Shown here: positions 43,902 to 64,000 of the stretch, piece by piece
Layout of the letters: every line of letters begins with the position of its first letter
Position numbering within the stretch: the stretch's first letter is position 1
Assembly (NCBI GenBank): GCA_965217585.1
Contig: OZ244561.1
Span: 6,912,001-6,976,000 of the forward strand
DNA from: Candidatus Latescibacterota bacterium
Lineage (GTDB): Bacteria; Latescibacterota; UBA2968; UBA8231
DNA length: 64,000 nt
Direction: 5' to 3'
The notes under the pieces: generated by a model
What the model was told of the DNA's origin: nothing
Seen by the model: the letters and a program-made list of their open reading frames with translations, nothing else
Database searches by the model: none
Made by a program: the position numbers and the translations under genes

Positions 43902-43921
43902 AGAGGAGGACAGATATTCTC

Positions 43922-45098: not shown

Positions 45099-46247
45099 TC
45101 ACGAGTCTTTTTCCCTTGGGACTTGGGAGGTCATCACCGATGTGAGGAATTGGTTGTAGCGCTTGGTGCCGAAAACCTCCTTCCTGTTGCGCCAGCGGAA
45201 GGGCAGGGGTACGATCTTGAGGCTGCGGTCCTCAAGGGGCAGCTTTACGGGTGCGTGGCTCTGCCGGTGTGAATCCCGCAGGGCAATGGAAATCTCTAAA
45301 GCCCGGGCCATGTCCGCGCCACTGCATCGAGGTTCCACTCCCTTCTCCAGACAGTCGATTAGGGCCTGAGTGCTGGCGATTTGCCGATTCCCCGGGTACT
45401 GCCACCCCTCCTCGTCGTAGGGCATGTCGTTGAGGCCGGAGTCGGCAAAAGCCCCCTCGATTTTCTCCAGATCCGCCCATAGCGGCGATTCCGGATTCCC
45501 CTTCAATTTCCACAGGTGGAAACTGTGGTAGTCGCTGAAGAACAGGACGCGGCTGGTCAAAATCTCAATGCCCCGCCTGCAGGTGGGGCGAATGTGTGCG
45601 AAACACTCGATACCGCTGGCAAAGCGGATATGCCCTCCCATGGCTTGGTCTTCGTCGCTAAAGGGATCTTCCTTGACCCAGCCGACCACCCAATCGACCT
45701 CGGCGTCGCCGGCGAACAGGCTGGCGACACACAGATCCTGGCAGTTGGCACCCCAGATCTCGCCCCTAGTATCCGCGGCCGTAGGCATGTAGATATTGAT
45801 ACTCTGCACCGAGCCCCACTCGCCGGATTCGATTTTTGCCCGGGCCTCCCAGAACTGTGGGAGGTTGCGCATGGCGTCAGCAGCGGCCCACGGAATGCCC
45901 CGCGAGCGCGTCTCTTCCACCATGCGGTCGGCCTCTTCCAAGCTAGCGCAGATGGGTTTCTCGCAGTAGATGGCCCTGACTCCCGCCCGCGCTGCAGCCA
46001 CCACTGCGTCCGGGTTGGGTCGTGCGGGCAGGATGGGCGCGGCAATGTCGATCTGTTCTCTGGCAAGCATCTCGTCGTACCTGCTGTAGCCCCTATCGAT
46101 TTTGAAGCGCCGGCAAAAAAGCTCCAGATTTTCGGGATCTGGATCGGCCACAGCCACGATCTCGGTCCGGGGATTGAGGGCGTAGGCGCGCGCGTGTTGG
46201 GTGCCTTTTATGCCCGTGCCGATCATGCCTACTTTGTACTTGGTCAT
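45099..46247 (-). CDS. Gfo/Idh/MocA family oxidoreductase
   Basis: VGMIGTG, IYCEKP; paralog of 47951-49102. Confidence 0.88.
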   Translation of the reverse strand: MTKYKVGMIGTGIKGTQHARAYALNPRTEIVAVADPDPENLELFCRRFKIDRGYSRYDEMLAREQIDIAAPILPARPNPDAVVAAARAGVRAIYCEKPICASLEEADRMVEETRSRGIPWAAADAMRNLPQFWEARAKIESGEWGSVQSINIYMPTAADTRGEIWGANCQDLCVASLFAGDAEVDWVVGWVKEDPFSDEDQAMGGHIRFASGIECFAHIRPTCRRGIEILTSRVLFFSDYHSFHLWKLKGNPESPLWADLEKIEGAFADSGLNDMPYDEEGWQYPGNRQIASTQALIDCLEKGVEPRCSGADMARALEISIALRDSHRQSHAPVKLPLEDRSLKIVPLPFRWRNRKEVFGTKRYNQFLTSVMTSQVPREKDS

Positions 46248-46358
46248 GCTCGCATGCTCCTCGTAACAACTGCCGATACAAACGCCATCATTCCGCCGTT
46301 ACGGGGTCGGCGGATCGCCTGCTTGTACTCACTTTTTTCAGCAGATAACTGGTATCAA

Positions 46359-47900: not shown

Positions 47901-47950
47901 AGCTTAATTTGGGCCACCGGTCCGAGCAAGCCAGCGGAGGTTATAACTTT

Positions 47951-49102
47951 ATGAGTAAATCCAAGGAAGCCAAGTACCGGGTGGGGGTCATAGGGTGCGG
48001 CAGAAAAGGCACGGAGTACGCGCGGGCTTACCACCTCCATCCCCTGACTGAAGTCGTGGCGGCGGCCGATTCGGACCCCGAAAATCTGGAGCTTTTTTGC
48101 CGGCGCTTCAACCTAGAAAAAGGCTATAATAACTACCGAGAAATACTCCGGCGGGAAAAGATCGATATCGCCTCGGTGATCCTCCCAGTCAAACCCAACC
48201 CCGAGGTGGTTTTGGACTGTGCTCAAGCAGGAGTGCGGGCCATAGGTTGCGAAAAACCCATCGCAGCCAGTCTGGCAGAGGCCGACCGCATGGTGGAGGT
48301 CTGCCGCGACCGGGGCGTCAAGTTCGCCTGCGGCGACCTAGAGCGCAACTTTCCGCAGTACTGGAAGGCCAAGGAGATCATCGACTCAGGCGAACTAGGG
48401 GCGGTGCAGGGCATCACCGTCACCCAGGGGAGCGGCACCCAGATGTCGGGCGGGGGTTGCCAGATTTTCAGCCTGATCCGGCTCTTCGCCAGCGATGCGG
48501 AGGTGGCTTGGGGGACGGGCTGGGTCGCCAGCGATCCCATGAGCGACTACGACCAGGGGGTGGCCGGCTATATCCGCTTTGCCAACGGGATCGAGGCCTT
48601 CATACACCGCCAAAACAATGCCAAACACGGTTTCGAGGTGCTGTGTAGTCGGGGAGTGTTCTTCAGCGACGGGGCCTTTCCGCACATGTGGAAGACCAAA
48701 GAGGGTGTGGAAAGGCCGATGTGGTCCAACCTCGAAAAGATGGAGGGACTCTTCTCCGCGACCCAAGCCCTGCACGAGGGGTTTGGAAAAATGGATGAGG
48801 AGGGCTGGGAGTACGGAGGGCCCCGGCAACACGCCACAATCCAGTCCATGGTGGATGCGCTCGAGATGGATATCGAGCCCAGAAGCAACGGCGACAACGG
48901 CCGCAAGGTGCTGGAGATGGCCATTGCCCTGCGCGAGTCACACCGCCGCGGCCATGCGCCGGTGCAGTTGCCGCTCGTGGACCGCAGCTCGAGGATTATT
49001 CCCCTACCAGGGCGCTGGCTCAACAAGAAAGAGGTGTACGGCCGGGAGTGGTACGCAAAGCAGATCGGTCGCTACAACAAACAGAAGCTCGGGAAGCCTT
49101 GA
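47951..49102 (+). CDS. Gfo/Idh/MocA family oxidoreductase
   Basis: VGVIGCG, CEKP, EMAIALRESH; GGAGG RBS before ATG 47951. Confidence 0.9.
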   Translation: MSKSKEAKYRVGVIGCGRKGTEYARAYHLHPLTEVVAAADSDPENLELFCRRFNLEKGYNNYREILRREKIDIASVILPVKPNPEVVLDCAQAGVRAIGCEKPIAASLAEADRMVEVCRDRGVKFACGDLERNFPQYWKAKEIIDSGELGAVQGITVTQGSGTQMSGGGCQIFSLIRLFASDAEVAWGTGWVASDPMSDYDQGVAGYIRFANGIEAFIHRQNNAKHGFEVLCSRGVFFSDGAFPHMWKTKEGVERPMWSNLEKMEGLFSATQALHEGFGKMDEEGWEYGGPRQHATIQSMVDALEMDIEPRSNGDNGRKVLEMAIALRESHRRGHAPVQLPLVDRSSRIIPLPGRWLNKKEVYGREWYAKQIGRYNKQKLGKP

Positions 49103-49330: not shown

Positions 49331-50971
49331 ATGAAAATACTTTTACTTTATCTGGGAACTCAGATCCTCCTGAGTTTGCAGTTTGCCGGCTGCGGTGAGA
49401 AAGAACCCATCGTCGCCCGGATCGGCGACGCCGATCTCGCAGTGGCGGATTTCAAACGCTTTGTGGGCAACCTGCCGCCCGAACTGCGGAGCGAGAAACA
49501 GGGCCGTGAAGCCGACCTCGACTATCTCAATTCCATGGTGGACCAGGAGTTGCTGCTGATGGAGGCCCGGGCCCGAGGGATAGATACCAGCGCCGCGATT
49601 GCGACCCAACTCCAAGATCTGATTCGGCTGCAGTTGGCTGGCCGCTACAGGGCCCAAGTTATTGACACGCGCATTAAAATCGCCTCGGAGGATATCCAAC
49701 GCGCTTTTGTGGATATGGGTTTTAACCGGGAGCGGCTGTACAGCCGCATTTTACTGTACACCCGTGAAGAGGTCGACGAGGTGATGCAGCAGCTTGGCCA
49801 TGGCAGGACCTTCGAGGAAATGGCGCGCCGTTTTGCCGACCATGATGCCTTTGCCCGGGAGGACGGCACCATGGACTGGATCGGTCGCACCCAGGCCGAG
49901 CGCTTCGGCATCTCTAAGCAGGATTTCTTTTCGCTGGCCGTAGGACAGGTTGCCGAGCCCCTGCGCATGCCTGGTTTCTGGCAGATTTACCGCTTTTTGG
50001 ACGACCGGGAAGCCAAAATAGAAAAATACCAGCAAGAGATCGGCAAGAAACTCTACAGGGAACAGCAGAGGATCCGGACTCAGGCAGAGTTTGAGGTTCT
50101 GAGTCGCAAGTACGGATTGCGCCTTCACCCAGAGGGAGTTCGCCTGCTGGTGCGGCGGAGTGCGCAGAAAAACCTCGACCTGACACCCGCAGAGGCAGCT
50201 CGGCCTCTGTACAGCTTCGCAGGCGGCAAAATGACCCTAGGGGCCTACCTGAACCAACTGCGCTCCAAGGGGTTTCGAGGGGGACTGATGGATAGCGTCC
50301 AAGTGGTCAAGTCGGCAAAAATTTCCGCGCTGCACCCCTCGCTCTTTGCCCGGGCCGGACGCGAGCGGGGATGGGGCGAGGAGCCCGCCTTCGTCGAGTG
50401 GCGCAAGCGCAAGAACAAAGAACTGATCCTGAAGGCCCTGATGAAAGCAGAGACGACCACTCGCATGGATCTCAATGAAACCGTACTCAGGGATTTCTAC
50501 GAGGCGGACCCGGGGCGCTTCCGCGATGCGGCAGAAGTTACTGTGCGGGAAATCTGGGTCCATGCAGAGGAAGAAGCCAGAGGATTGCGGGCGGAAATCG
50601 AACGGGGTGCCGACATAGCTGAGCTACTGCACCGGCCTGGCGTGCACTCCCACGGCAGCCTGCGCCGGGGAGGCGAACTAGTCCTCCGGCACCTGCTTAG
50701 ACCGGCCTATCCGGCACTGGTGGACACCGCGTTTGCGGCCCAAGAGGGCGACTTGGTAGGCCCCGTGGCCCTAGAAGAGATGGAAGCCTTTGCGATTTTT
50801 CGGGTCCTCGAGCGCAAAGACAGTCGCATCAGGACCTTTGAGGAGGCCCAAAAACAAGTGCGGGCCCGGGTGCGGGCCGAACAGGAACGCGAACTAAGCA
50901 CCGATTTTCTGAAGCGCCTGCAGGAGAAATACAGGGATCGAATCGAATTGTTCGTAGAGCGGCTTGAGTAA
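49331..50971 (+). CDS. PrsA/SurA-like parvulin (PpiC) peptidyl-prolyl isomerase lipoprotein with two foldase units
   Basis: FAGC lipobox; VARIG, ELLLMEARARG, FEEMARRF, VREIWV..EEEA, GDLVGPV, FEEA. Confidence 0.8.
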   Translation: MKILLLYLGTQILLSLQFAGCGEKEPIVARIGDADLAVADFKRFVGNLPPELRSEKQGREADLDYLNSMVDQELLLMEARARGIDTSAAIATQLQDLIRLQLAGRYRAQVIDTRIKIASEDIQRAFVDMGFNRERLYSRILLYTREEVDEVMQQLGHGRTFEEMARRFADHDAFAREDGTMDWIGRTQAERFGISKQDFFSLAVGQVAEPLRMPGFWQIYRFLDDREAKIEKYQQEIGKKLYREQQRIRTQAEFEVLSRKYGLRLHPEGVRLLVRRSAQKNLDLTPAEAARPLYSFAGGKMTLGAYLNQLRSKGFRGGLMDSVQVVKSAKISALHPSLFARAGRERGWGEEPAFVEWRKRKNKELILKALMKAETTTRMDLNETVLRDFYEADPGRFRDAAEVTVREIWVHAEEEARGLRAEIERGADIAELLHRPGVHSHGSLRRGGELVLRHLLRPAYPALVDTAFAAQEGDLVGPVALEEMEAFAIFRVLERKDSRIRTFEEAQKQVRARVRAEQERELSTDFLKRLQEKYRDRIELFVERLE

Positions 50972-51006
50972 TCTGGTCGAGATTCTTGCAGCTCGTGGAA
51001 TAATCC

Positions 51007-51012
51007 TATAAT
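51007..51012 (+). promoter_or_regulatory. Putative sigma70 -10 element for the 51148 operon
   Basis: Perfect TATAAT with TTGCAG 15 bp upstream (50986-50991; short spacer). Confidence 0.45.
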
Positions 51013-51147
51013 TGGGGACGCGCTAGCGGTCGACCACCGTCCATTCTGAGGCTGCACCCAAGGACCGCCGGGACTACTAGCTCTTCAAACCGGCGGTAAA
51101 CTCTTCGGTATAGGAATGTTTCTTGGGCTGGAAAAGGGGGTTTGTAG

Positions 51148-53817
51148 ATGAGACCGACACTCAAGGTATTTTGTGGTCTCCTCGTGGCTCTGGGGAACCT
51201 GGGCGGAGGGCCGGTGCTGGGACAGCCCGACTACGGCACGCGGTTGGGATTGGGCCAAGGCCTGGATCTCAGTTTTGAGCCCCAGGGCCCCGGGGTCATG
51301 CTGGGTGCTCTGGACCCGGCTGTGCGTCGCTGGTACGTGCCCCAGGAGCTTTTTGCGGAATACCAGTGGCGCCAGTGGGAGTACACCAACTATGCCCGCG
51401 ACCCGTACCAGCGCTATGTTAGCACCGCCCTAGAGGGTGATTACTTCTATGATATTTACGGCAATTTCCTAGCGCGCGGCTGGTTGATTTTCAACAACTC
51501 CCAGATCCGTCCCCAGCAGTTCGGGAATTCTCTCTTCAAAGCCACCCGCTTTGACCGGTGGTTCTCAGGGGTGGTGATAGCGGCCGATCACAAGGGCCAA
51601 TATTACTACACCATGACCCTGAGCAACCGGCTCCGCACCATCCTGACCCCCATGGTCTTTGCAAAACCGCGCATGGATGCGGTCCAGTTCGACTTGGCCA
51701 CGGACCGCTACGAAGCTACCCTGCTCTATTCGCGCGTCAGCAGTCCAGGTGGCGTCGATACCGACAACGAGGAACTCCTGCGGACCAACAATACTACCTT
51801 GGTGGGAGGACGCTTGGTCTTTCGAGTGGGGGACTTTGTAAAGGTAGGAGGGCACGTGGTTAATGCCCACCAATCCAATACCCTGTCGGACAAAATGGCG
51901 TGGAATCCCTTTACCGGCGGACTGACCGTGGACCAGAACCGCTCGATCAGTCGAATCCAACTGGTGCTGCGGGACGATTCGCCCGCAGATGGAAGAGGGG
52001 GAGCCGCCTTTTTTGCGGCCGGTTCGGACATCATCATCACCTACCGGGATGGCACAGTCGAAAAAGGCAAGGATATCCGCTTCAAACCCGTTGTAGAGGG
52101 AGGGTTTGTGCAGCAGGGTTTTATTGCGGCCGACGGCAACGAAGAGATCCGCCTACTCTACGACTTCGACAGCCCCGCCTTTCTGGACCGGACCAATTTT
52201 TCCAAAAGCGAAATCGCCGGGGTGGCGTTCCAGTTGCAGATGGGCAACGACTACCAGATCTGGATGACCTCAGACCGGCAGACGGACGACAACGGACAAC
52301 CGGTTCTCCTGCTGGTCGCCCGGGCCGAAGGCAATGTCCAGGATCTCACTAACCTGCAGACTGTGTACTTTGAAAGCGGCCTGCCCACGGCCACCCACAT
52401 TGCGGGGGGTAGCGTGGAAGTGCGCGACCTGCTGGGGTTCGACTTCTACGGCGAATACGACCTGAGCTGGAGCTTCCGCAAGTACCCCAATACCCTCGAA
52501 GAGACGCACAAGACCTCTGCGGGCATCAAAGGCAAGGAGAGCGCGCCAGCCTGGATGGTAAACCTATCTAAGAAGGCATATCCGTGGTTCGCATTCGGCG
52601 AGGTCTACAGCATGGATCCATTTTACAATACCCGAACCTTTGTCACCTCGGGCACGGGCGAGATCGACTACGCCAGCGAACGCCGGAGCGTGATGGAATT
52701 CGTCGAAGACAACGACGATCAGGACAGGATTCCGGATACCGTGCGCTTTGACTGGTTGGCCGGCGACAATACGGTCTTCCCCGGATGGGACCAAAACAAC
52801 GATTTCATCCCGGACTTCAACCAAAACGACAACTTTGAGCGCATAAACGCCGTGCCGGATTACGAAGAGCCCTTTTTTCGCTTCGGGGTAGACCGGCCCG
52901 AATTCCTCTTTGGCGTGGATCTGAATCACAATTTCTGGATTGACCAGTACGAAAACGACGAAGAGCCCGACTACCCCTATCGCAAGGATCACAGGGGGTT
53001 CAACCTCTACGGCGGGGCCCATATCACGCCCGGAGCAAAGCTGGTGATAGGGGCGCTGCGCGAGGAGTTGATCTCGGCGCACAAAAAGAACCACAGCACC
53101 TATGCCTTGCTGAGCCTCGAAGAAGACCTACCCCGCTATGGCCGCATACGGTTTTTCGAGATGATCCAGCGAGTCGAAGACGATATACCCAATCCGCTCC
53201 TGCAGTGGTCGCCGAACAACTCTCTGCAGGGTGGCGAACTCGTCAAGGTAGAGGATCCACTCCTGGCGCGGGACACTTGGGTGAATCACGTCTTCCTAGG
53301 GCACGTCCTGCAAGCGTCCTCTCTGTTTGCCATGAGCAAAATAAACTACGCGCTCTTCCTCCAGCGCACGAGCGAGAGCCAACGCCGGGAACTGGAACTG
53401 GACGCCGCGGATTTCTTCTTCGGGGCGATCAGCAAGGTGAGCTATCGCCATTCCCTGGGCTCCTTCATTTTTGAGCCGCGCTGGAAGAGTGAGTTCACCA
53501 AACAGACCCGCACTTTGTTCACCTTGGAAGAGCGCACCACCCTGAGCGAGTTGGTGGCGGGGCTAGTCGAAACCAATATCCTGCGGGCTACCCGGGTGCA
53601 GCTCGGGCTCGAATATCTGTTTTTTAACGATTTTGATGGAGATGTGCGGGATTTTAACTCGCTGACCTTGGCCCTGCAGTTCACCAATGAATCGAATTAC
53701 CTAGGTTACCGGCTGCGCGCCCTAGTGGGCACGGTGTTGGAACGAAAGGATTTCAAGGAGATGGAGTCCCGAACTACGAATCATTCGTTTATAACCATTT
53801 ATGCGGGTTTGGAATAG
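51148..53817 (+). CDS. Large exported hypothetical protein, predicted outer-membrane beta-barrel with Asp/Asn-rich loops, paralog A
   Basis: Signal peptide then QPDYGTRLG; amphipathic strands in the C-terminal third ending SFITIYAGLE; EDNDDQD and DQNNDFIPDFNQND motifs. Confidence 0.65.
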   Translation: MRPTLKVFCGLLVALGNLGGGPVLGQPDYGTRLGLGQGLDLSFEPQGPGVMLGALDPAVRRWYVPQELFAEYQWRQWEYTNYARDPYQRYVSTALEGDYFYDIYGNFLARGWLIFNNSQIRPQQFGNSLFKATRFDRWFSGVVIAADHKGQYYYTMTLSNRLRTILTPMVFAKPRMDAVQFDLATDRYEATLLYSRVSSPGGVDTDNEELLRTNNTTLVGGRLVFRVGDFVKVGGHVVNAHQSNTLSDKMAWNPFTGGLTVDQNRSISRIQLVLRDDSPADGRGGAAFFAAGSDIIITYRDGTVEKGKDIRFKPVVEGGFVQQGFIAADGNEEIRLLYDFDSPAFLDRTNFSKSEIAGVAFQLQMGNDYQIWMTSDRQTDDNGQPVLLLVARAEGNVQDLTNLQTVYFESGLPTATHIAGGSVEVRDLLGFDFYGEYDLSWSFRKYPNTLEETHKTSAGIKGKESAPAWMVNLSKKAYPWFAFGEVYSMDPFYNTRTFVTSGTGEIDYASERRSVMEFVEDNDDQDRIPDTVRFDWLAGDNTVFPGWDQNNDFIPDFNQNDNFERINAVPDYEEPFFRFGVDRPEFLFGVDLNHNFWIDQYENDEEPDYPYRKDHRGFNLYGGAHITPGAKLVIGALREELISAHKKNHSTYALLSLEEDLPRYGRIRFFEMIQRVEDDIPNPLLQWSPNNSLQGGELVKVEDPLLARDTWVNHVFLGHVLQASSLFAMSKINYALFLQRTSESQRRELELDAADFFFGAISKVSYRHSLGSFIFEPRWKSEFTKQTRTLFTLEERTTLSELVAGLVETNILRATRVQLGLEYLFFNDFDGDVRDFNSLTLALQFTNESNYLGYRLRALVGTVLERKDFKEMESRTTNHSFITIYAGLE

Positions 53818-53832
53818 ATTTGAGGCACAAAC

Positions 53833-55857
53833 TTGAATCCAAAAGGCAACGGAGGCAAACTTGCCTTGGAGGCCGCTGGTATTGGCCTACTGGCCCTATT
53901 TCTCCGGTTGGTCCACCTCCAGCAGCAGACCCAGAATCCTCTCTTCGAGGTGCCCGTGGCCGCGGCTCGGACCTTTGTAGCCCTGGCCCGGGAACTGCTG
54001 CGCCAGGGATCGTTGCCGCCGGATGCGCCGCCTTCCCTGTACCCCTTTTTTCTAGGGGGGCTCTTTTGGCTTTGCGGCGAAGCCTACGGGGCAGCCCGCT
54101 TGGTCCAGGCGCTGCTGGGAGCGGTCAACTGCGTGCTGTTGTGGCGCTTGGGATACGCGCTCTTTTCGTCGCGCCCCATAGCCCTTGGTACCGGGCTAGC
54201 AGCCGCTCTGTACGGGCCTTTGTTCTTCTTGGGCGGGTCTCTGCTGCCGCCCGTGCTAGCCGTTTTTTTTACTCTACTCTCCCTGCACGCCCTGCTGTGG
54301 GCCATGTCCGGAGAGTCGGTTTGGCGCTTCGGGATGCCGGGGCTGCTGCTGGGCCTAGCCGCTTTGAGCGGGGCTCACGTGCTGCTCTTTGCTCTAGGTG
54401 TCTTGCTCTGGCTCTGGTTGCCGGAAAGGAGGGGTTTGGGAGCTGGAGCCGGGCTGGTTCTGGGGCTGGCGGTGATCCTGCTGCCGGTTTTTCTGTGGAG
54501 CGGATGGGCGGGGGAAATGCTCTACCCTTCTTTCGGACTTGCGGCGCAAAACCTTTACCTTTTCTGGCAAGGGCAGGAGTTTTTGCCCGACCTGGATCCG
54601 TACTACGGACGCGAGTTTTCGGGGCTACTGGCCGCCTTGATGTGGAAAGGCTGGATAGGGTTCCCCTTTGGCCTTGTAGCCCCCTTGGCTCTGGTGGGCC
54701 TGGGCTTTCGACTCAGGTCGCCGGAACGCTCGCAGGCGGAAACCCCTATTCTCCTCTTTGTCGTCACTTGCTGTGTGGAAACCCTGTTTTTCGAGTGTAC
54801 CTCCGGCACCAGGGCAGTGCTGGTGCCGGGGTTCCTGCTCTTTGCCGCCGTCGGTATGGGGGAATGGAAGCGGGCCTCTTGGCCGCAGCGGGGCGCGGGC
54901 GCAGTTGCTCTGGTACTACTGGGCGTGGGACTAAACCGGGGTCAGATGGAAAAGACGGCGCAACCGCTCCAGCACCATTGGTTGGGGTACGCCTATGAAC
55001 AGCTAGATATGAAGGTCAATGCGGTCCGGGAGTACGAAAAAGCGATTTTCCTAGGAATAGAGCGCATGGACACTTATCTCGCCCTGGCCGGGCTCTACAG
55101 CGCCGGAGGGAAATACGATCGAGCCATCAGAGTGTACCGCGACCTGCTGCAGCGCTGGCCCGGAGAGTCCGCAGTGCGGCTGGCACTGGGGGACCACTAC
55201 GCGAAGGCGGGGCTCGCAGCCCAAGCCTCCACCGTGTATCGGGCGCTGCGGGAGGAGGGCGGCGATTCTGCGGTGTTGCTGCCGCGGCTGGCCCAGGCCC
55301 GTCTGGGCAGCCAGGATGCTCCGGGAGCCATTGAGGCCTACCGAGAATTGCTCAAAATCCAGCCGGAGAATGATCGGGTGCGCTTCCAACTGGGCATGCT
55401 CTACACCAAAGAAGGACGGATTCAGGAGGCCCAGGCGGCCTACCGTCCGCTGCTGCAGAATGCCGCCTGGGTGGCCGTAGCCGGTCCCCGCTTGGCGGAC
55501 CTACTGATGCGGACGCGGCAAGAGGCCGAGTCCGAGCAGGTGCTCATACAGACCTTGAGAGCTGCGCCCGACTCGGCACCGGCCCTAGCCCTGCTGGGCA
55601 AGTTGCTCTACGACCGGGGCCGCCACGAGGAATCCCTGCTGTATTTCGAACGCTTGCGTCCACTGCAGGCAGAGGATTTCCGCGTGTACTTTTATTTGAC
55701 CAAGCTCTACCAGGAGTTGGGCAGAGAGCGAGAAGCAGAGGAGGCCATGGACCTCTACCTCGAGTACCGTCGGCAAAAACACCGGGCGGATATTCAGCGA
55801 CACGCGCAAGAAGAAAGCGCCTTACTGCTAAAAAATATCTTAGGAGAAATCCATTGA
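53833..55857 (+). CDS. GT-C/PMT-like multi-TM protein with C-terminal TPR repeats
   Basis: PSLYPFFL, RLVQALLG, AALYGPL..L...LL (ArnT/PMT_2-like) followed by tandem TPR helices. Confidence 0.7.
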   Translation: MNPKGNGGKLALEAAGIGLLALFLRLVHLQQQTQNPLFEVPVAAARTFVALARELLRQGSLPPDAPPSLYPFFLGGLFWLCGEAYGAARLVQALLGAVNCVLLWRLGYALFSSRPIALGTGLAAALYGPLFFLGGSLLPPVLAVFFTLLSLHALLWAMSGESVWRFGMPGLLLGLAALSGAHVLLFALGVLLWLWLPERRGLGAGAGLVLGLAVILLPVFLWSGWAGEMLYPSFGLAAQNLYLFWQGQEFLPDLDPYYGREFSGLLAALMWKGWIGFPFGLVAPLALVGLGFRLRSPERSQAETPILLFVVTCCVETLFFECTSGTRAVLVPGFLLFAAVGMGEWKRASWPQRGAGAVALVLLGVGLNRGQMEKTAQPLQHHWLGYAYEQLDMKVNAVREYEKAIFLGIERMDTYLALAGLYSAGGKYDRAIRVYRDLLQRWPGESAVRLALGDHYAKAGLAAQASTVYRALREEGGDSAVLLPRLAQARLGSQDAPGAIEAYRELLKIQPENDRVRFQLGMLYTKEGRIQEAQAAYRPLLQNAAWVAVAGPRLADLLMRTRQEAESEQVLIQTLRAAPDSAPALALLGKLLYDRGRHEESLLYFERLRPLQAEDFRVYFYLTKLYQELGREREAEEAMDLYLEYRRQKHRADIQRHAQEESALLLKNILGEIH

Positions 55858-57929
55858 AGAGGCGCGTACTATACTCGCTGGGAATGGCTGGGCTGCTTCT
55901 AGGATCGGATACCCTGGGCCTTGAGGTCCTGCGCTTTGGCCAGGGGGAACAGGTCACTTGGGAGGGGGAGATCTCGGGGGCCGAGGGCATTTCAATCATC
56001 GCACCGGAATACCGCACCGCGCTGGACCCGAATGTCACGGAAATTGGGGTTGCACCGGGCGACCTGATCGAGTTTGAAAATCCCGATTTCCCCAGGAGCA
56101 TCATGCCCCGCCGGGTCCAGAAGGAGCAAAATCTGGCCGTGGATGTGGTCGAGCGCGGCGGCAGCATCAGTGTCCCCAATGCGATCGACATTGTCAGGGT
56201 TCAGTTGGCGACTATCCTAGCGGGAGTCATTTCACCGGATCCCACGGGCAATGCCTTTGAGCGCAAGGGGAAGAAGATCTTGGGTACCCTGATCGTCTTG
56301 GATCTGGGGGCTCGGGTTGGGGTCAATCGGGTCCGCTTTTTCCCGCGCAACACCCTGTTCCCCTCCCCTACGACTCCCTTCCAAGACGACTTTCTAAAGA
56401 ATTTCGACCTCCTGGTCAACGACGGGCTGGTGCTGACCGATGCCGGTCTACCGATCTGGGAGACGTACCACAGCCGCCTCAATAATACCGAACCCATCAC
56501 AGTGATCGACGTCGATCCGCCGCGCTACCTCCGCTTTATCCGCCTGCGGGCTACCTCTGCGGTTCCCTTCGAGATTGAGAAGCTGCAGGTCTTTGGCGAA
56601 GGGTTTTTTCCCGCGGCCCAGTATCTCTCGCCCGTAATCGACATCGGCCTTCCGGCCAACTGGGGCCGGTTGCGCTGGGAACTGGAGGCCCTAGGCAATA
56701 AGAAAAAGGGGAATGTACAGATCCGCACCCGTACCGGTGCGGATGCGACCCCCTTTGTCTATAACCGCAAGCGAGTCGGCAAAGCCGATGCCGAGGAGAT
56801 TCCCTTTTCGGTAGATGATCCATCCGAACCGCTCTCCCGGCGAGACTTTCTGAAGCTGCGGCCCAAGGGCAACCCGGACGATGAATGGGAGCGTGGCTCG
56901 GTAGAGGAAGACTTGGAGAACTGGAGTCCGTGGACTCCACCCTATTCCATAGAGGCAGCCACTAGCGAGGAGGGCACGCGGATCCTTTCGCCCGGCCCCA
57001 AGCGCTATTTCCAGTTCCGCGCGGATTTTGTGAGCGAGGACCTGGAGTCGAGCTATGTGCTAAAAAATCTGTCCTTCGACTACACTACTCCGGCTCTGGC
57101 CGATGAACTGGTAGCCGAGATCTTCCCCCGAGAAGTGTCTGCAGCCACGGATATTTCCTTTGTGTACACCGTGCGCACATCAATGAACAGCGTCAATCTG
57201 CAGGGTTTCAACGGCCTAGAGATATTCACCCAAGGGCAGCCCGAGCGCATCGAGCGCATCGAGATCATCGACGGCAACAACCAGACCACAGTAGACCATA
57301 TCTTTGCAACCCAGGATGCGGTCACCGATGAAGGCGAGGTCGGCATCACCTCCTTTACCCACGAGGGATTCACCGTGCGTTTCCCTCACATACAGGAGGA
57401 CAATACCCTCCTGAAGATCTACTTTGTCAGCCGAATTTTGACCTACAGCAGTGCTTTTGCAGGACGAGCCTTGATCGTGGGAGGGGATACCTTTCAGAAT
57501 GTGGTCTCCGGCGACGCGGCCACCTTGGACGAGGCGGATTCTCCCTTTGATTCGGGAGTTGTGGTCCTGAGTCCAGCCGTAGCCAGAGCGGACCTGATCG
57601 GGGATTTCGACTTGGACGCTCCGCTACTAACCCCGAACGGCGATGGAGTGAATGACAGGTTAGAGCTGCGCTGTGAGGTCCTGACGGTGGTGGGCCAGGC
57701 CCACATCACCATAGAAGTCCTCGATCTCAGCGGCCGACGGGTGCGCTCCCTCTTCGACCACAAAGGAGAGAACGGGGTGTACGACAGGGCCCGTTTTGCT
57801 GAGTTGGGATGGGATGGCAGGGACGTGCAGGGTCATTTGGTGCCCCCCGGACTGTACCTGGTCCGGCTTGGGGTGGACGGCGATGCGCGCTCCAGTACTG
57901 CCTTGCGTACCCTAGGGATTACTTATTGA
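55854..57929 (+). CDS. Secreted protein with C-terminal FlgD-Ig / T9SS type-B-like domain
   Basis: Signal peptide; DLGARVGVNRVRFFPR discoidin-like region; LTPNGDGVND...DLSGRRVR...WDGRD..G..VPPGLYL. Confidence 0.75.
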   Translation: MKRRVLYSLGMAGLLLGSDTLGLEVLRFGQGEQVTWEGEISGAEGISIIAPEYRTALDPNVTEIGVAPGDLIEFENPDFPRSIMPRRVQKEQNLAVDVVERGGSISVPNAIDIVRVQLATILAGVISPDPTGNAFERKGKKILGTLIVLDLGARVGVNRVRFFPRNTLFPSPTTPFQDDFLKNFDLLVNDGLVLTDAGLPIWETYHSRLNNTEPITVIDVDPPRYLRFIRLRATSAVPFEIEKLQVFGEGFFPAAQYLSPVIDIGLPANWGRLRWELEALGNKKKGNVQIRTRTGADATPFVYNRKRVGKADAEEIPFSVDDPSEPLSRRDFLKLRPKGNPDDEWERGSVEEDLENWSPWTPPYSIEAATSEEGTRILSPGPKRYFQFRADFVSEDLESSYVLKNLSFDYTTPALADELVAEIFPREVSAATDISFVYTVRTSMNSVNLQGFNGLEIFTQGQPERIERIEIIDGNNQTTVDHIFATQDAVTDEGEVGITSFTHEGFTVRFPHIQEDNTLLKIYFVSRILTYSSAFAGRALIVGGDTFQNVVSGDAATLDEADSPFDSGVVVLSPAVARADLIGDFDLDAPLLTPNGDGVNDRLELRCEVLTVVGQAHITIEVLDLSGRRVRSLFDHKGENGVYDRARFAELGWDGRDVQGHLVPPGLYLVRLGVDGDARSSTALRTLGITY

Positions 57930-57943
57930 GCAGGAAGACCGTT

Positions 57944-60634
57944 ATGGTATCTTCTGAGCACATAAAAATGGGCCTTCTATTACTCGTCGGCCTGTGGTGT
58001 CTGAGACCGGAGCCAGTGGTGGGCCAACCCGACTACGGCACCCGTCTAGGCTTGCAACAGGGGGGCCAGTGGCGCCACTTGCCACAGGGAAGCAGACCTA
58101 TGCTGGAGGTGGTGGATCCGCTAATCCGCAAGTGGTACTTGCCCCAGGAATTGTACGCGGAATACCGCTGGCGGCAGTGGGAGTCCACCAATTACGCCCG
58201 GGAATTCTACGGTCGCTATGTCGAAACCGATCTGGCAGGGGATTACTTCTACGATTTATACGGCAATTTTCTGACCCAGGGGTGGCTGATCTTCAACGCC
58301 GGCCAGACCAGCCCCGCAGAAAATGGCCATGTGCTGTTCAAGGGCCAGAAGTTCAGCGAGTGGTTTTCCGATGTGGTCATCGCCTCCGAACAAAAGGGCC
58401 AGTATCACTATGCCCTGACCGCGAGCAATGATCTGCGCATCATCTTCACTCCCCTGGTCCTGTCCAAAATCCGGTTCTCGGCGATCCAGTTCGACGCCTC
58501 GACGGACAAGTACAAGACCACGCTGTTCTATTCCCAAGGTGCGCTGCGCGGGAGGACGGATACCGAGCGGCTCCGCACCAATTCCACCACCTTGATGGGA
58601 GGACGTCTCGTCGCCCAGGTGGGGGATTTCACGGAAATAGGATTCCACCTAGTCAATGCCCACCAGTCCAACAGTCTGGACGGCAAGCTGGTGAGCAACC
58701 TCGTGGCGGGCTCCCTGACAGAGGGGCAGAACAAGGTGATTTCCTCCATCGAAATCGAGTTGCGGGACGATTCGCCCGCAGACGGCAGGGGTGGGGCGGC
58801 CTTTTTCCCGGCCGGTTCGGACATTTTCATAACCTATCGGGACGGCACTCAGGATGCGGGCAAGGACATCCGCTTTGAGCCGATCGTGGAAGGTGGGTTG
58901 GCCCGGGAAGGCTCGATTTCCGCCAACGGCGACGATACAATCCGCCTGATCTACGACTTTACCAGCCCGGCCTTTGTCAACCGGGCCCACGCCGACCGAT
59001 CCGAAATCGTCGCGGTCGAGTTCCAGCTAGCCCTGGCCAACGATTTTCAGGTCTGGATTAGTTCGGATCGGCAAACCGACAGGGTGGGCACCCCGGTGTT
59101 CCTGCTAGTGGAACGAGCCGAGGGCAATGTCCAGGACAAATCCAACCTGCGCCTCGTCAACTTTGAATACGGTCTGCCCACCGCCACCCACCTTCTCGGC
59201 GGGACCCTGAAAGTGCAGGATGTGTGGGGTATCGATCTGTATGGAGAGTACGACCTGAACTGGAACTACCGCAAGTACCCCAATCCGCAGGAAGAGACGC
59301 ACAAGACCTCTGCGGGTATCAGAGGCAAGCGCAAAGTACCAGCCTGGATGTTGAATTTGTCCAAAGAGGCCTATCCATTCTCTTTTTTTGCGGAACTCTA
59401 CAACATAGATCCCCTCTACGGTACCCAGACCTTCATCACTGCGAGCGACGGCACCATGGACTATGCCAACGAGCGCCGGCGCCTAGACCTGGTGGAGGAC
59501 AATGACGACCAAGATCGCTTCCCCGATACACCCCGCTTTGACACAGCACTTATCGCCCAAGCGGGAGAACGTCAGACCGTGGATCTCCAGGTATTCCCCG
59601 GCTGGGACAGGAACGGCGATTTCCTCCCGGATTTCAATCAGAACGACAGCAAACTCAAGCCCAATTCCATTCCCGACTATGATGAACCCTTTCTGCGCTT
59701 TCGGGTAGATCGGCCGGAGTTCCTCTTCGGGGTGGACATGAACCACAATTTCTGGGCCGATCTCTACGAGAACGACACCGTGCCCGACTATCCCTACCGC
59801 GTGGATCACCGCGGCTTCAACCTCTTTGGCGGGGTCCACCTGACGCCGCAACTGGAACTGAAGATAGGAGGCATGCGCGAGCAGTTGATCGCCTCGGAAC
59901 AGAAGAATTACAGCAACTATGGCCTACTGAAATTCGCTGGCAAATCACCGCGCTGGGGCTATTTGCGCCTCTTCGAGATGATGCAGTGGGTAGAAGATGA
60001 TATCCCCGATCCGCTGTTGCAGTGGGCCCCGGACAATACCGTGGATGGCGGGCGTCTGCAAGAGCTGGAAGATCCGCTTCTAGCGCGGGATACTTGGATC
60101 AACCAGTTCTTCGTTGGGTACAGCCTGAAGGTCGAGGCCCTAGAACTAGTGAACAAGGTACATTACGTATACTTCCGCCAGTTGATGGAGCAAAGCCGGC
60201 GCTTGCGCTTCGGGTTGGACAAGTCGGACTTTTTCTTTGGCCTGATCAACAAGGCGAGTTACCGCTACCGCCTGGGGCACCTGACCCTAGAACCGCGCTG
60301 GAAGAGCGAGTACCTAGACCAGAGCCGCAACCTGTTTGATGCCCGAGATCAAAAGACCCTCACCGAGCTGTTTTCCGGTCTGGTCGAGATGAGGCTGATG
60401 CACGCCTCTTCCCTGCAGATGGGGATCGAGTACCTGCTCTCCACGGATTTCCACGGCCGGGAGCGAGATTTCACCACCCTGAGCGGGGGGGTGCAGTTCG
60501 CCAATGAATCCAGCTACCTAGGCTACGTACTCAAAACCCTGACCGGGTTCGTGATAGAGCGCAAAGATCCCAAAGGACGAGATCCCACCACCGCGGTCCA
60601 GTCCTTTATCACCGTGTATGCAGGCATGGAGTAA
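57944..60634 (+). CDS. Large exported hypothetical protein, predicted outer-membrane beta-barrel, paralog B
   Basis: Colinear with 51148: GQPDYGTRLG, LRDDSPADGRGGAAFF, RPEFLFGVD, EPRWKSE, SFITVYAGME. Confidence 0.65.
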   Translation: MVSSEHIKMGLLLLVGLWCLRPEPVVGQPDYGTRLGLQQGGQWRHLPQGSRPMLEVVDPLIRKWYLPQELYAEYRWRQWESTNYAREFYGRYVETDLAGDYFYDLYGNFLTQGWLIFNAGQTSPAENGHVLFKGQKFSEWFSDVVIASEQKGQYHYALTASNDLRIIFTPLVLSKIRFSAIQFDASTDKYKTTLFYSQGALRGRTDTERLRTNSTTLMGGRLVAQVGDFTEIGFHLVNAHQSNSLDGKLVSNLVAGSLTEGQNKVISSIEIELRDDSPADGRGGAAFFPAGSDIFITYRDGTQDAGKDIRFEPIVEGGLAREGSISANGDDTIRLIYDFTSPAFVNRAHADRSEIVAVEFQLALANDFQVWISSDRQTDRVGTPVFLLVERAEGNVQDKSNLRLVNFEYGLPTATHLLGGTLKVQDVWGIDLYGEYDLNWNYRKYPNPQEETHKTSAGIRGKRKVPAWMLNLSKEAYPFSFFAELYNIDPLYGTQTFITASDGTMDYANERRRLDLVEDNDDQDRFPDTPRFDTALIAQAGERQTVDLQVFPGWDRNGDFLPDFNQNDSKLKPNSIPDYDEPFLRFRVDRPEFLFGVDMNHNFWADLYENDTVPDYPYRVDHRGFNLFGGVHLTPQLELKIGGMREQLIASEQKNYSNYGLLKFAGKSPRWGYLRLFEMMQWVEDDIPDPLLQWAPDNTVDGGRLQELEDPLLARDTWINQFFVGYSLKVEALELVNKVHYVYFRQLMEQSRRLRFGLDKSDFFFGLINKASYRYRLGHLTLEPRWKSEYLDQSRNLFDARDQKTLTELFSGLVEMRLMHASSLQMGIEYLLSTDFHGRERDFTTLSGGVQFANESSYLGYVLKTLTGFVIERKDPKGRDPTTAVQSFITVYAGME

Positions 60635-60640
60635 AGCTCT

Positions 60641-63600
60641 ATGCGCGAGCAAAAACAATACAATGGGCGCAGGGCTTGGGCAGTCTCCTTCGTCTGCCTG
60701 CTGGGCCATCTCAATCCCGTCGTCGCCCAGCAGGGCTACAGCATTGTGGGCGGCCAGATCGTCGTGCAGCAGCGCCAGCACTGGAAAAACTGGAAGACCC
60801 CCTCCCATCTGGTCCGCATTGACCGAGCCGGCGGGGTCAGCGCCCGCACCCTGCGCTCGGTGTTCAATGTGTTGGAGGACAAAACATTCGGACGTCCGGT
60901 GCAAATCGATAGTAAAAAGCCGCGCATCATGAACATCGACAGCACCTTGAAGCTGGATGCTTTGGGGAATCCGCTGACCAATACATCGGGCCAACAAATC
61001 TTCGACTATCTGGTGCGGCCGGGAGTCAGCCGAGCGGGTTCCAACCCTCACCTAGCGGCCAATATCGCGGACGGGGATCCGCATACTTTCTGGGAGCCCG
61101 ACCCGGATGATCCGCTCGAAGAGTGGTGGATCGAGGTGGACTTGGGTCGGGTAGTGCCACTGGAGCGGCTGCGGCTGCGGTTTGTGGAGGAGGACATGGG
61201 GGATCCCTTCCTGCGCTTCGTCCTCTTACTGGCGGCGAAGCAAAACCTCTTTTTGGAAGAAGGAGACCAACTCGCCTTTGAGAGCTTTCTTCCCTTTGAG
61301 GGGTTCAACACCACTCGGCGGGAGTTCACCTTTGACGCCGACCGGGTCAGCCCGGAACTGCCCCCGGACCCGCTGGCCGCGGCGGACAAAACCCTAGGGT
61401 GGGGGGACGTCCCTATTTCCCTGACATCTACCGCTGGCGAGGGACCGGATCCCTCGTGGACCGGAAGACTAGTCGAAACCGTCCGCATCGTAATCACGGA
61501 CGCGCGCAGGGGCCGGGCCGAACAGATCGACGAGGACGAGTGGGAGAGCTTGCCGCGAGCCGAGCGCGGGGACATTGTTCACTTCCTCCAGGACGCCGGG
61601 TACGAAGAGCCCGTGGACGCAGCGACCTACGCCTCTCTACCGCAGGACCGGCAGGGCCGCAAGGAGTACTACCGCCGCGAACGACCCCGGCTGGCCGAGG
61701 TCGAAGCCTGGGGCTGGGGGGACGACATTGGCCAGTCCCTAGTCGAAGGCGGTGGCTCCATCCACTTCAGCAATCCAGTCACTATTCCGGGCATGCTCTT
61801 CGACGGCAACTACGGCACCTCCGTTAATGTCCAAACCATTTCCCCACGCGAGCCAGGCTTGAACGTGCTGACCTTGGACTTAGGGGGCTCGGTATGGCTG
61901 GATCATATCCTCATCGTCGGTTCTACCCCGCCGCGCGGTTATGCGATCCGGGGATCTTCCGGCGAGCGCAATGCGCAGGGCGATCTCCAGTGGGAACCCA
62001 TTACCTCCCTAGAGCGGGAGACCAATGTGCATGGCGGCAATTTTCGCCTGCTAGTGGACCGCCTAGAGCCGGCCCGCCCGATTTCTTTTATCGAGATGGT
62101 CACCCTGCCCATCCGGCTGAATGCCACAGAGTGGGTCGGCAGTATGTGGCCACGGCTGTTCAATATCATGCTTTTCTCCAAGGGACCGCCGGCCGCAGTG
62201 GTGCTGGAATCCGACCAGATCGAGTTGCCCGGACTCTTCACCCTGGGCGCGGTGAACTGGGAGGCAGACGCGCCGCCGGGCTCCGAGGTGGAAATCCGCA
62301 CCCGCAGCGGCAACCAACTGCTCGAGCGCATCCGCTACTTCGACAAGACCGGCAACGAGAAGACCGCCAAGGAATACGCAGAGACCGCCTCTTTCTTCAA
62401 GGGACCGAGCGATACCTCGCTGGTGGTCGGCCCGGGCTGGAGCTCTTGGAGCCAGAAGTACCGCACCCCGGGCGAAATCGCCACCTCGCCGGGGTTGCGC
62501 CGTTTTGTCCAGATCCAGGCCAGCCTCCTCAGCCACGACCGCCAAGCCGTACCCGTACTAAAAAAAATCACCGTGGACCTTCAGCCCCCCCTGGCGCAGA
62601 GCCTAGGAGCCGAGGTCTGGCCCGAGCGCACGGTCGCCGGCCTGCTGGACACCTTTGAGGTGTTTGTCCAGCCCCGGTTTCTGGAAGCCCCCCTCAATCT
62701 CCGCAACCTGGGCTTCGACGAGGTGCTGCTGCACTCCGAGCCAGCGCTGGATCTGCGCCTAGTAGACGCGGCCTTGGGCACCGAAGAGGAATTAGAACAG
62801 GACCAACCAATCCTGCTCTTCGCCCAGCCACATGCCGAGGGACTGGAGAGCGCCGATGGCCAAGTTATGCAGATCCTCAACCAAAGCGACTCCCTGTGGG
62901 TGCGCTTTCCCCAAATCGTGCACAGCGCCGAGGAACTGACCCGACTGTATTACCGTGCGGTGCATCCCGGGGAGGAAGTGCCCACCAGTCTGGGTGGAGA
63001 ACTGCTGACGGTACACAGCCACGCTCAGCTCCCGCTCGAAGAGCGCGGTGCCGTGCGCTACTTCCGCAAGGTGCAGAGCGGGGAAGAGGTGAGGCTGGAA
63101 GAGGTGGGCCCGGATACCTATGAAGGCCTGCCCCCCACCGAGCAGGGACCGATCCGCTACTTCCGCAAGGTGGCGGGGGTGGGAGACCAGTCCCTGTTCA
63201 ACGCCCAAGGGGATACCCTAAATGCCGTGCAGCACAGAGGCCTGAGACGAAACGAGCGCGGCTGGGTGGTGGGTACGGGGCGACTGTTGCGCCTGCGCTT
63301 CAGTGCAGTGGTTTATCTGCAGAGCACCCTGCTGAAGGTGGCAGTGCGCAACAGCGGGACCGAGTCGACTTGGCAAGAGGCCCAAGGCCGGGATGTCACA
63401 GTCTTGCGGCCGGCGGAAACTCTGGCCATAGGGATAGACGGGGCGGGCCCAACCATCACCGACGTGGGGATTGCGCCCAACCCCTTTACTCCCAACGGGG
63501 ACGGGGTCAACGATGCGGCGCAGATCCAGTTCGCGCTCTTCAAGATCTACGCGGCCCGGCCGGTGGTCGTCCGGCTCTATAGCCTAGATGGCCGGCAAGT

Positions 63601-63772
63601 GCGGTGGCTGGAGGCGCAGGGGGTAGGAGGACGGCATCAATTCACCTGGGACGGTCGGGATCACAGTGGCAACCTGGTAGCCCCTGGGCTCTACCTGTGT
63701 CAGATTGAGGTGGAGGCGGATGCGGATATCAGTGGGCGCAGGCGCACCCACCTGATCGCCGTGGCTTATTGA
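60641..63772 (+). CDS. Large secreted protein with discoidin-like domains and C-terminal FlgD-Ig / T9SS type-B-like domain
   Basis: Signal peptide; DGDPHTFW..WIEVDLGR; PNPFTPNGDGVND...YSLDGRQVR...WDGRD..G..VAPGLY. Confidence 0.78.
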   Translation: MREQKQYNGRRAWAVSFVCLLGHLNPVVAQQGYSIVGGQIVVQQRQHWKNWKTPSHLVRIDRAGGVSARTLRSVFNVLEDKTFGRPVQIDSKKPRIMNIDSTLKLDALGNPLTNTSGQQIFDYLVRPGVSRAGSNPHLAANIADGDPHTFWEPDPDDPLEEWWIEVDLGRVVPLERLRLRFVEEDMGDPFLRFVLLLAAKQNLFLEEGDQLAFESFLPFEGFNTTRREFTFDADRVSPELPPDPLAAADKTLGWGDVPISLTSTAGEGPDPSWTGRLVETVRIVITDARRGRAEQIDEDEWESLPRAERGDIVHFLQDAGYEEPVDAATYASLPQDRQGRKEYYRRERPRLAEVEAWGWGDDIGQSLVEGGGSIHFSNPVTIPGMLFDGNYGTSVNVQTISPREPGLNVLTLDLGGSVWLDHILIVGSTPPRGYAIRGSSGERNAQGDLQWEPITSLERETNVHGGNFRLLVDRLEPARPISFIEMVTLPIRLNATEWVGSMWPRLFNIMLFSKGPPAAVVLESDQIELPGLFTLGAVNWEADAPPGSEVEIRTRSGNQLLERIRYFDKTGNEKTAKEYAETASFFKGPSDTSLVVGPGWSSWSQKYRTPGEIATSPGLRRFVQIQASLLSHDRQAVPVLKKITVDLQPPLAQSLGAEVWPERTVAGLLDTFEVFVQPRFLEAPLNLRNLGFDEVLLHSEPALDLRLVDAALGTEEELEQDQPILLFAQPHAEGLESADGQVMQILNQSDSLWVRFPQIVHSAEELTRLYYRAVHPGEEVPTSLGGELLTVHSHAQLPLEERGAVRYFRKVQSGEEVRLEEVGPDTYEGLPPTEQGPIRYFRKVAGVGDQSLFNAQGDTLNAVQHRGLRRNERGWVVGTGRLLRLRFSAVVYLQSTLLKVAVRNSGTESTWQEAQGRDVTVLRPAETLAIGIDGAGPTITDVGIAPNPFTPNGDGVNDAAQIQFALFKIYAARPVVVRLYSLDGRQVRWLEAQGVGGRHQFTWDGRDHSGNLVAPGLYLCQIEVEADADISGRRRTHLIAVAY

Positions 63773-63784
63773 AAGGAGGAGGAC

Positions 63785-64000
63785 ATGCCCTACCGGACTG
63801 GTTTTCTATGCTGGGTCTTCTCGCTGGTCTTTTCCAGCAGTCTGTGGGGACGGGCCGAGTTCCACCTAGGTGGCCCCGAGGGCATGCTGTGGGAAGATCT
63901 TCTCACCCCGGGCCGGGAAGGCCGCTATGTGGTGCTGGATGCCGACGGCAATATCCTCGAGGAGTTGCCCCTGACCGTGATAGGGGAACAGGCCAGCGGC
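63785..64000 (+). CDS. 5' part of another secreted protein (runs off the window)
   Basis: AAAGGAGGAGG RBS; MPYRTGFLCWVFSLVFSSSLWG signal then EFHLGGPEG..W, similar to the mature start LRFGQGEQVTW of 55854. Confidence 0.65.
   Translation, partial: MPYRTGFLCWVFSLVFSSSLWGRAEFHLGGPEGMLWEDLLTPGREGRYVVLDADGNILEELPLTVIGEQASG

Follow-up and report, generated by a model that had tools for sequence, protein, structure and literature searches.

What might a bacterium do with two giant, closely related barrel proteins that are encoded in one operon with a set of secreted, tagged surface proteins? The question is raised by the last quarter of a 64,000-nucleotide stretch (the window) of Candidatus Latescibacterota bacterium (assembly GCA_965217585.1, contig OZ244561.1, positions 6,912,001 to 6,976,000). 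The source of the operon is a single-contig genome of 7.32 Mb that is 94.6% complete. A preliminary description made from the sequence alone had proposed an export or display system for surface proteins. We find that this genome carries 41 copies of the cassette to which the operon belongs, and that in it predicted outer-membrane barrels (proteins A and B) accompany a trio of related secreted proteins (P1, P2 and P3). We read the operon as a proton-energised, Sus-like system for capture and uptake that is assembled from non-homologous parts, a reading that we hold to be equally likely right or wrong. The genes and their parts are as follows, in positions of the window.

49331..50971, + strand: lipoprotein with a SurA/PrsA-like parvulin peptidyl-prolyl isomerase (PPIase), 546 amino acids (aa); Pfam matches above the cut-off to Rotamase (42 bits) and Rotamase_2 (40 bits)
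51148..53817, + strand: protein A, orphan outer-membrane beta-barrel of group I, 889 aa, about 24 strands in the AlphaFold2 model
51952..52323, + strand: inserted beta domain of A, residues ~269-392, from DSSP on the model; putatively extracellular from strand parity
52615..52989, + strand: Asp-rich loop of A, residues ~490-614, putatively extracellular from parity and probably Ca-binding
53833..55857, + strand: GT-C-fold membrane protein with C-terminal tetratricopeptide repeats (TPRs), 674 aa; Pfam PMT_2 27.1 bits (cut-off 26.1)
55854..57929, + strand: P1, 691 aa, of the beta clade; a signal peptide, a CBM32/F5-8 domain, two more beta-sandwich domains and a T9SS-type (type IX secretion system) C-terminal domain (CTD)
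57594..57926, + strand: CTD of P1, TPNGDGVND...WDGRD...PGLY...ITY; CHU_C 19 bits and FlgD_ig 19 bits, both below the cut-off, with a fold match to the PorU CTD
57944..60634, + strand: protein B, paralog of A, 896 aa, 58% identical to A and in the same group I subclade
60641..63772, + strand: P2, long alpha clade, 1043 aa; F5_F8_type_C 26 bits, FlgD_ig 27.3 bits (above the cut-off), CHU_C 23 bits
63785 to window+65851, past the window edge, + strand: P3, gamma clade, 688 aa; CHU_C 35 bits and FlgD_ig 33 bits, both above the cut-off; same tail
65983-66930, beyond the window and after P3: H, CBM9-like, 315 aa, with a ..SWGRIK tail

As described previously, the seven genes from the PPIase to P3 are co-oriented and tightly packed on the + strand, with successive gaps of 176, 15, -4, 14, 6 and 12 bases, and both P1 and P2 end in TPNGDGVND...WDGRD..G..V.PGLY. 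The lipobox cysteine of the PPIase, read by eye, is Cys21. A longer reading frame of B, starting at 57809, would overlap P1. Between 26 and 30 of 30 bins, those of genes upstream of the cassette among them, are covered by contigs from three RNA runs; with no silent control, this coverage is not proof of transcription.

The P proteins are one family that combines a CBM32-type domain, immunoglobulin (Ig) domains and a PorU-like C-terminal tag. The AlphaFold2 model of P1 has a predicted local distance difference test score (pLDDT) of 91.5. Its mature residues 67-230 adopt a CBM32/F5-8-like fold, matching the CBM32 structure 4a42 with Z 14.7 and a root-mean-square deviation (rmsd) of 2.2 Å over 124 aligned residues. 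The top fold match of this domain is the DOC domain of BIRC6, and for that reason sugar binding by P1 is not proven by the fold. The tail of P1 matches the CTD of PorU (6za2; Z 11.6, rmsd 2.7 Å, 97 aligned residues), which bears out the T9SS fold of the passenger tails, previously described as type-B-like. With the family models, P2 reaches 13 bits and P1 gives no hit against TIGR04131 (cut-off 35), and the CHU_C cut-off of 27 is passed by P3 alone of the three. Of the 18,574 open reading frames (ORFs) of the genome, 103 carry the motif [TS]PNGDG.ND, always within the last 130 residues; none of the shuffled ORFs does.

A tree of the C-terminal 330 residues, built for 175 of the genome's 185 P proteins and with clades drawn by hand, places P2, P1 and P3 in three different clades. 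A long P protein of the alpha clade is present at 40 of 41 group I loci, and at 38 of 41 it is joined by at least two other P proteins. Judged by sequence, the P genes are not diverse cargo; they are one family kept as a fixed trio. H belongs to a family whose profile matches the CBM9 of a xylanase (1i82, E 2.8e-9), and two relatives of H match CBM9_1. H itself has no Pfam hit, and no homology was found between P and H. Genome-wide, 68 ORFs, mostly of about 300 aa, carry a short tail of the [ST]WG.IK type, often TAVE..SWGRIK as in H; this tail could be a third, minimal sorting or docking signal.

The AlphaFold2 model of A, made from a 150-row alignment, has a pLDDT of 84.7 and a predicted template modelling score (pTM) of 0.83. 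DSSP, applied without inspection of coordinates, gives 12 hairpins and about 24 strands (26 possible), and hydrophobicity alternates along most of them. On this model, A and B form large barrels of the outer membrane, in which two loops are inserted among about 24 strands, in agreement with the giant barrels of the preliminary description. The large N-terminal domain that it assigned to A was not recovered: following a low-confidence segment of ~65 residues, the N-terminal half consists of barrel strands and the one inserted beta domain. Counting back from the C-terminal strand, both inserts would lie outside the cell. The beta-domain insert holds a DDSP.D motif that is conserved family-wide. 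The Asp-rich loop, which has 20 Asp in 125 residues, probably binds Ca, and no segment of A is more conserved (0.69 in group I, 0.53 across all groups).

By sequence the barrels have no established relatives. A and B match zero Pfam families, give no NCBIfam hit at E 0.1 and have no significant sequence match in the PDB. Plug (PF07715) and the receptor-barrel families are absent from A, B and 52 homologs, and the Plug model does match elsewhere in the genome and in control genomes. The carriers PorP, SprF and PorV are barrels of ~300 aa with 14 strands; against PF11751, TIGR03519 and NF033709, A and B gave no family hit at E 0.1. Fold searches with A (Foldseek, VIA) returned generic barrels only (Z up to 13.9, rmsd mostly 5-13 Å), and this holds for TonB-dependent transporters, which are barrels of 22 strands with a folded N-terminal plug, as well. 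The best Foldseek matches were MtrB (TMq 0.25), Deinococcus SlpA, the FimD/PapC ushers and LptD, with E from 8e-8 to 2e-5 and TM-scores of 0.14-0.25, a likeness to A that is generic in each case. PorV, PorP and SprA were not listed in three fold searches with A, which does not exclude likeness. At 50% clustering, 678 representatives match A, many of them fragments; the named homologs belong to Ca. Latescibacteria/Latescibacterota. The identity of A as a 'mini-SprA' was rejected: profile-profile probabilities reached 8% and 4%, confined to a short Asp/Asn motif, and a separate SprA gene is present. A lead from the Atlas to DUF6029, a family linked to Wzi-like barrels in the accessible text of PMC9603273, scored 0.89, under the threshold of 0.9.

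The strand number of A is like that of ushers, and FimD is among its top fold matches (Z 13.5, rmsd 7.9 Å). A could be an usher-like pore for the three P subunits, which it would secrete and polymerise to form a fibre or lattice, while the PPIase would act as chaperone. The fixed set of three subunit types together with a foldase, and weak SlpA_C hits in 12 of 52 A homologs (all below the cut-off), would suit such a pore. On the other hand, the fold matches are generic (rmsd 5-13 Å), P bears a T9SS-type tag while SprA is found in 148 of 151 genomes of the phylum, and many copies of A lack subunit genes. A and B also differ from chaperone-usher systems in having no Pfam usher hit, and the chaperone here is a parvulin, not PapD. 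We regard an usher-like role as very unlikely. As an observation apart, the SlpA_C hits are positionally consistent (profile ~232-307) in P0190, P0262 and ten other group II homologs, and SlpA also ranks second and third in Foldseek.

A-family ORFs number 81 in the genome and P-family ORFs 185; a CTD is present in 181 of the latter and ends in Y in 163. Together, A and P make up 8.6% of the genome, or ~13% with linked families. A further 88 ORFs match the CTD profile, most with a type-A-like tail. A lies within 10 kb of P in 73 of 81 cases, whereas the other CTD-bearing ORFs lie near A in 15 of 88 (background 14%). A tree of 108 A proteins, of which 31 come from other genomes and 77 from this one (after exclusion of four that are short or split), separates group I, to which the window operon belongs, with support 1.0. 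It comprises 54 genes at 41 loci. Within a 12-kb limit and with score thresholds set by the analyst, P is near 40 of these loci, H-type proteins near 38, the PPIase near 34 (background 16%) and DUF6785 near 29 (background 24%). Group II comprises 25 genes at 11 loci, accompanied by P at 9, a lipoprotein at 9, a giant TPR protein at 8, a TonB-like protein at 8, ExbD at 4 and ExbB at 3.

Of 151 genomes of the phylum, 91 have A, 94 have a match to the P profile and 148 have SprA. Matches to P occur in 90 of the 91 genomes with A, but are weak (E 1e-14 to 1e-25) in several families; one genome (G073) has 72 A matches and no P gene in six fetched regions. With a group II query against GTDB, the best 80 of 500 matches represent 77 loci, labelled Latescibacterota, Gemmatimonad or uncultured. 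The 67 of these that span at least 20 kb are biased to one clade and about ten genomes. In this sister clade, P is present at 5 of 67 loci, a type-A-tagged protein of ~640 aa at 25 and DUF6785 at 20; neighbours named by eye include sulfatase-like (11), PhyH-like (two groups of 12) and oxidoreductase-like (10) proteins. The pairing of the barrels with TPNGDGVND proteins, central to the preliminary description, thus stands for group I (40 of 41 loci) and fails in the sister clade (5 of 67), which shows that it is not obligatory for the A family, although it is nearly obligatory for group I.

Some observations on the copies stand apart from this distribution. The ~640-aa family, which has a type-A-like tail and two FlgD-like stretches, takes the place of P beside group II barrels and showed no homology to P; members lie at L099:2830-4755 and at C1:4890894, 6039964, 7029875, 1343093, 4377999 and 4373820. 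Several A copies are split into at least two ORFs (in G073, and at C1:869724-872665 and C1:7213572-7215964), consistent with decay after duplication or with assembly errors. Tandem arrays of a ~700-aa 'ALTWDF' family with type-A tails, some near DUF4159 genes, occur at C1:3642114-3659797, 802694-819412 and 6791624-6807750.

Translocon and attachment genes of the T9SS, to which the passenger tails had pointed, are present in the genome: SprA, a PorU-like C25 peptidase (sortase) beside PorV, and 12 PorV-family matches were found. GldM and GldN were found in none of five genomes, but the control genomes were silent as well; GldK and GldL were not searched. With SprA nearly universal and GldM/GldN undetected, this may be a T9SS with another energiser or none. 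SprA is present in 59 of 60 A-negative genomes, on which ground A was rejected as a general core part of the T9SS. A search of this genome with PF11751 found nothing, with silent controls, while a custom profile did find three close PorP-like genes of the ~305-aa barrel type. None of them is at the window locus, and one adjoins P in a group II operon.

The preliminary description took A and B for a new class of cognate shuttle or anchor. They would accept the type-B-like CTD from SprA and hold P at the surface, as SprF does for SprB. For this, there are only three close PorP-like genes for 185 P genes, 40 of 41 group I loci have P nearby, and A and P co-diverge in their trees, with distance correlations (rho) of 0.52, 0.70 and 0.79 against a permutation maximum of 0.27. 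The accessible parts of PMC9143113 and PMC12618676 likewise describe type B cargo that stays anchored on its cognate PorP-like barrel. However, a gene for a barrel of 305-400 aa directly follows P in 5 of 18 regions from five other genera; all five products match PorV_fam below the cut-off, and two pass the Pfam PorP_SprF cut-off. In this genome, P is directly followed by a PorP/PorV-like barrel at two loci, and a PorP-like barrel lies at C1:477820. A conventional carrier therefore exists apart from A, since such barrels adjoin P both in the core operons treated below and in this genome. Despite cognate pairing, three orphan type B cargo share one common shuttle in the accessible part of PMC12618676. 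Three P to one or two A is an awkward stoichiometry for a carrier, P is found at few sister-clade loci, and the distribution of A tracks a TonB-like gene, not SprA. A complex prediction, run for the single pair of A (residues 60-864) and the P1 CTD, scored 0.00, which is evidence neither way. The shuttle proposal is weakened by the separate carriers, by the sister clade and by the P proteins being a fixed trio, and we consider it quite unlikely.

The TonB-like gene leads to a candidate motor, which lies outside the window and was therefore missed in the preliminary description. Core operons contain P, a PorP-like barrel, one to three A genes, a giant TPR protein of 1,080 aa, small lipoproteins, ExbB and ExbD; ExbD occurs twice in the two regions that reach that far, and a transmembrane-anchored DUF4159 protein is encoded in the same or sister loci. 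This TonB-like DUF4159 protein (E 1e-25, a threshold that leaves out distant DUF4159 proteins) accompanies A in 90 of the 91 genomes that have A and was found in 0 of the 60 that lack it. One co-oriented run in G044 (L148) comprises three P genes, the gene for a group I barrel, the giant TPR gene, ExbB, ExbD and the DUF4159 gene. In G038 (L151), a genome of one contig that is 98% complete, the four A matches all belong to group I, and a separate operon without A encodes a lipoprotein, small barrel, TPR protein, ExbB, ExbD, DUF4159 protein and small barrel. The equivalent of this operon in the present genome lies at C1:471973-479534, and we infer that the window cassette is served by a motor in trans. 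An SxxxH motif, which is part of the motor-binding motif of TonB/TolA in the accessible text of PMC12204202, lies within the N-terminal membrane helix of 8 of 15 TonB-like paralogs. The DUF4159 heads match no vWA model. As a side observation, cassette lipoproteins are fused to an AgmX/PglI (TonB-C-like) domain beside DUF4159 proteins (L142:7541-8776 and L139:2699-4087; 62 and 66 bits, both above the cut-off); together they are possibly a split transducer.

Motor and barrels together also recall the Agl-Glt machinery of Myxococcus. As an adhesion or force platform, the barrels would present the lectin trio for adhesion to glycans of a host or of particles, and the complex would be pulled or moved by the ExbBD motor; nothing would be imported. 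Core operons with three barrels, TPR protein, lipoproteins, ExbB and two ExbD echo GltABH-GltC-GltK plus the Agl motor as portrayed in the accessible part of PMC11761067, and group II operons share with that system an adhesin, a motor of the TolQR/ExbBD type and the AgmX/PglI domain in two lipoproteins. Among 12 A triplets, seven contain one barrel from each of three old clades (four in this genome, three in G031); the other five are lineage-specific duplications. The conserved extracellular Asp-rich loop would also suit a platform. By contrast, A had no match to Glt barrels in the NCBIfam scan, in which library content was unchecked for those models and no direct comparison was made. The adhesins here are T9SS-tagged lectins, and the window type of cassette has one or two barrels and three P proteins. 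Solitary sister-clade barrels stand among catabolic genes without lectins, and 41 variants with linked DUF6785 would seem to exceed the needs of a motility machine. We consider a platform of this kind unlikely.

We return to capture and uptake. Loci of SusC/SusD, together with the Ton system (ExbB-ExbD-TonB), combine a large outer-membrane barrel, surface binding proteins, an ExbBD motor with a transmembrane-anchored arm, high paralogy and neighbours that are catabolic genes or encode membrane proteins. The present system shares all of these. The differences are that A lacks a Plug or TonB-receptor match, that the binding proteins are CTD-tagged CBM32 proteins and not SusD lipoproteins, that the arm ends in DUF4159 and not TonB_C, and that the motor operon includes the 1,080-aa TPR protein. 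A SusC/D-like receptor, the second option of the preliminary description, fits the context best, although A is not a TonB-dependent transporter by sequence.

In the proposed mechanism, P1, P2 and P3 would cross the inner membrane via Sec and the outer membrane via a single SprA translocon. To judge from fold, motif and gene order, their CTDs would probably be handled by a few PorP/PorV-like barrels encoded elsewhere. One P protein per clade would then assemble on or beside the A/B barrel, presumably through contacts with its extracellular inserts, and the trio would present its CBM32-type binding domains, aided by the CBM9-like H. The modelled barrel would act as a gated channel or receptor. 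Energy would come in trans from the shared operon, through putative coupling of ExbB, ExbD, the TonB-like arm with its DUF4159 head and the giant TPR protein. The PPIase may assist folding, and the DUF6785 membrane proteins may serve as inner-membrane permeases. Duplication of whole cassettes would have yielded the dozens of variants, whose ligands would presumably differ. In its specific form, this would be a new kind of energised transport across the outer membrane: an orphan barrel of ~24 strands, capped by a T9SS-delivered lectin heterotrimer and opened by an ExbBD motor via a DUF4159-headed arm and a giant TPR relay, with one motor operon for dozens of interchangeable cassettes. We think this architecture somewhat more likely wrong than right. 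The same motor might also eject P cargo from SprA where GldLM-type motors are undetected.

Several points weigh against capture and uptake. The reading is built on genes and predicted folds, from which ligand, transport and contact are inferred. Co-divergence of A and P reflects duplication as a unit and is not proof of contact, as co-duplication alone explains it. None of the 41 group I loci has a TonB-like, ExbB, ExbD or giant TPR gene within 12 kb. Because just four families supply all 60 A-negative genomes, the counts of co-occurrence are not independent. SxxxH is missing in 7 of 15 TonB-like paralogs, including the first helix of the motor-operon copy of this genome. The first 65 mature residues of A are modelled at low confidence, and the putative plug segment has a pLDDT below 50. 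The extracellular Asp-rich loop is more conserved than the rest of A, which speaks for a structural role or a constant partner rather than for variable ligands. There is no glycoside hydrolase in the window operon, and the genome already has 25 TonB-dependent plug matches. For DUF6785, no solved relative was found, and a transport role is unsupported. The readings are not fully exclusive, as A could both hold P and transport. To explanations other than those discussed here we assign hardly any probability.

The preliminary description had further supposed that the operon brings its own foldase and modifying enzyme. This stands for the PPIase, which is near 34 of 41 loci; the GT-C protein of the window, in contrast, lacks the motif Asp and may be inactive. 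It is one of 15 paralogs, 10 of which lie within 10 kb of an A gene, and it is optional to the cassette; a count of this protein near 22 of 41 loci is disregarded, since the profile behind it included TPRs. The first loop motif has Asp in 11 of the 15, Ala in two and Asn in one, and was not seen in one. As in GT-C enzymes, this Asp would presumably be catalytic. The window protein and its closest paralog (C1:2940996), which carry Ala at this position, are possibly a non-catalytic subgroup.

Upstream of the cassette, at window 40798-49102, lie catabolic-looking genes, named by eye as FGE-sulfatase-like, enolase-superfamily, two Gfo/Idh/MocA-like oxidoreductases and glycoside-hydrolase-like. Window 41607-43901 encodes an FG-GAP/ASPIC-UnbV (CRTAC1-like) protein with TPRs, and such proteins recur beside cassettes. 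The cassette of the window faces another of group I (H, P, P, P, A), which lies on the minus strand at C1:6986511-6998064, ~10 kb past the window end; the two are separated by genes for an FG-GAP/ASPIC protein and a TPR protein and by two DUF6785-like genes.

Two further comparisons place the system among known ones. With T9SS type B (SprB-SprF and PG1035-PorP, as far as set out in the accessible parts of PMC9143113 and PMC12618676), it shares the TPNGDG-type CTD with PorU-CTD fold, SprA, PorU and PorV, and a PorP-like gene beside P in core operons. It differs in that A, three times as large as PorP, is no relative of that protein, that P occurs as a trio and that the tails end mostly in Y (163/181). 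With the vWA-headed force transducers beside TPR-tolQ-tolR-tolR genes, presented in the accessible text of PMC12204202, it shares a non-canonical TonB-like arm (transmembrane helix with SxxxH, linker and globular head) next to TPR and motor genes. The head here is DUF4159; neither DUF4159 nor Latescibacteria is mentioned in PMC12204202, and its accessible text names no giant barrels or lectin trio.

That the system lacks a characterised counterpart, as previously supposed, agrees with our literature searches, which found no description of it; supplements and paywalled papers were outside their coverage. The terms 'Latescibacter' and 'type IX secretion' together returned 0 papers, and DUF6785 was in no paper found. 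For the phylum, the accessible part of PMC4454575 mentions only non-specific porins and TonB-dependent receptors, and that of PMC12635249 does not mention the phylum.

New, then, are the barrel family and the assembly, while the motor and the secretion tag are of known kinds. The A family occurs in 91 of 151 sampled genomes of the phylum, and yet no family model, solved relative or paper was found for it. If capture and uptake is the true function, the system would be a second route of active uptake across the outer membrane besides TonB-dependent transporters, it would show secretion of the T9SS type building receptor caps outside Bacteroidota, and it would give DUF4159 and DUF6785 their first role.

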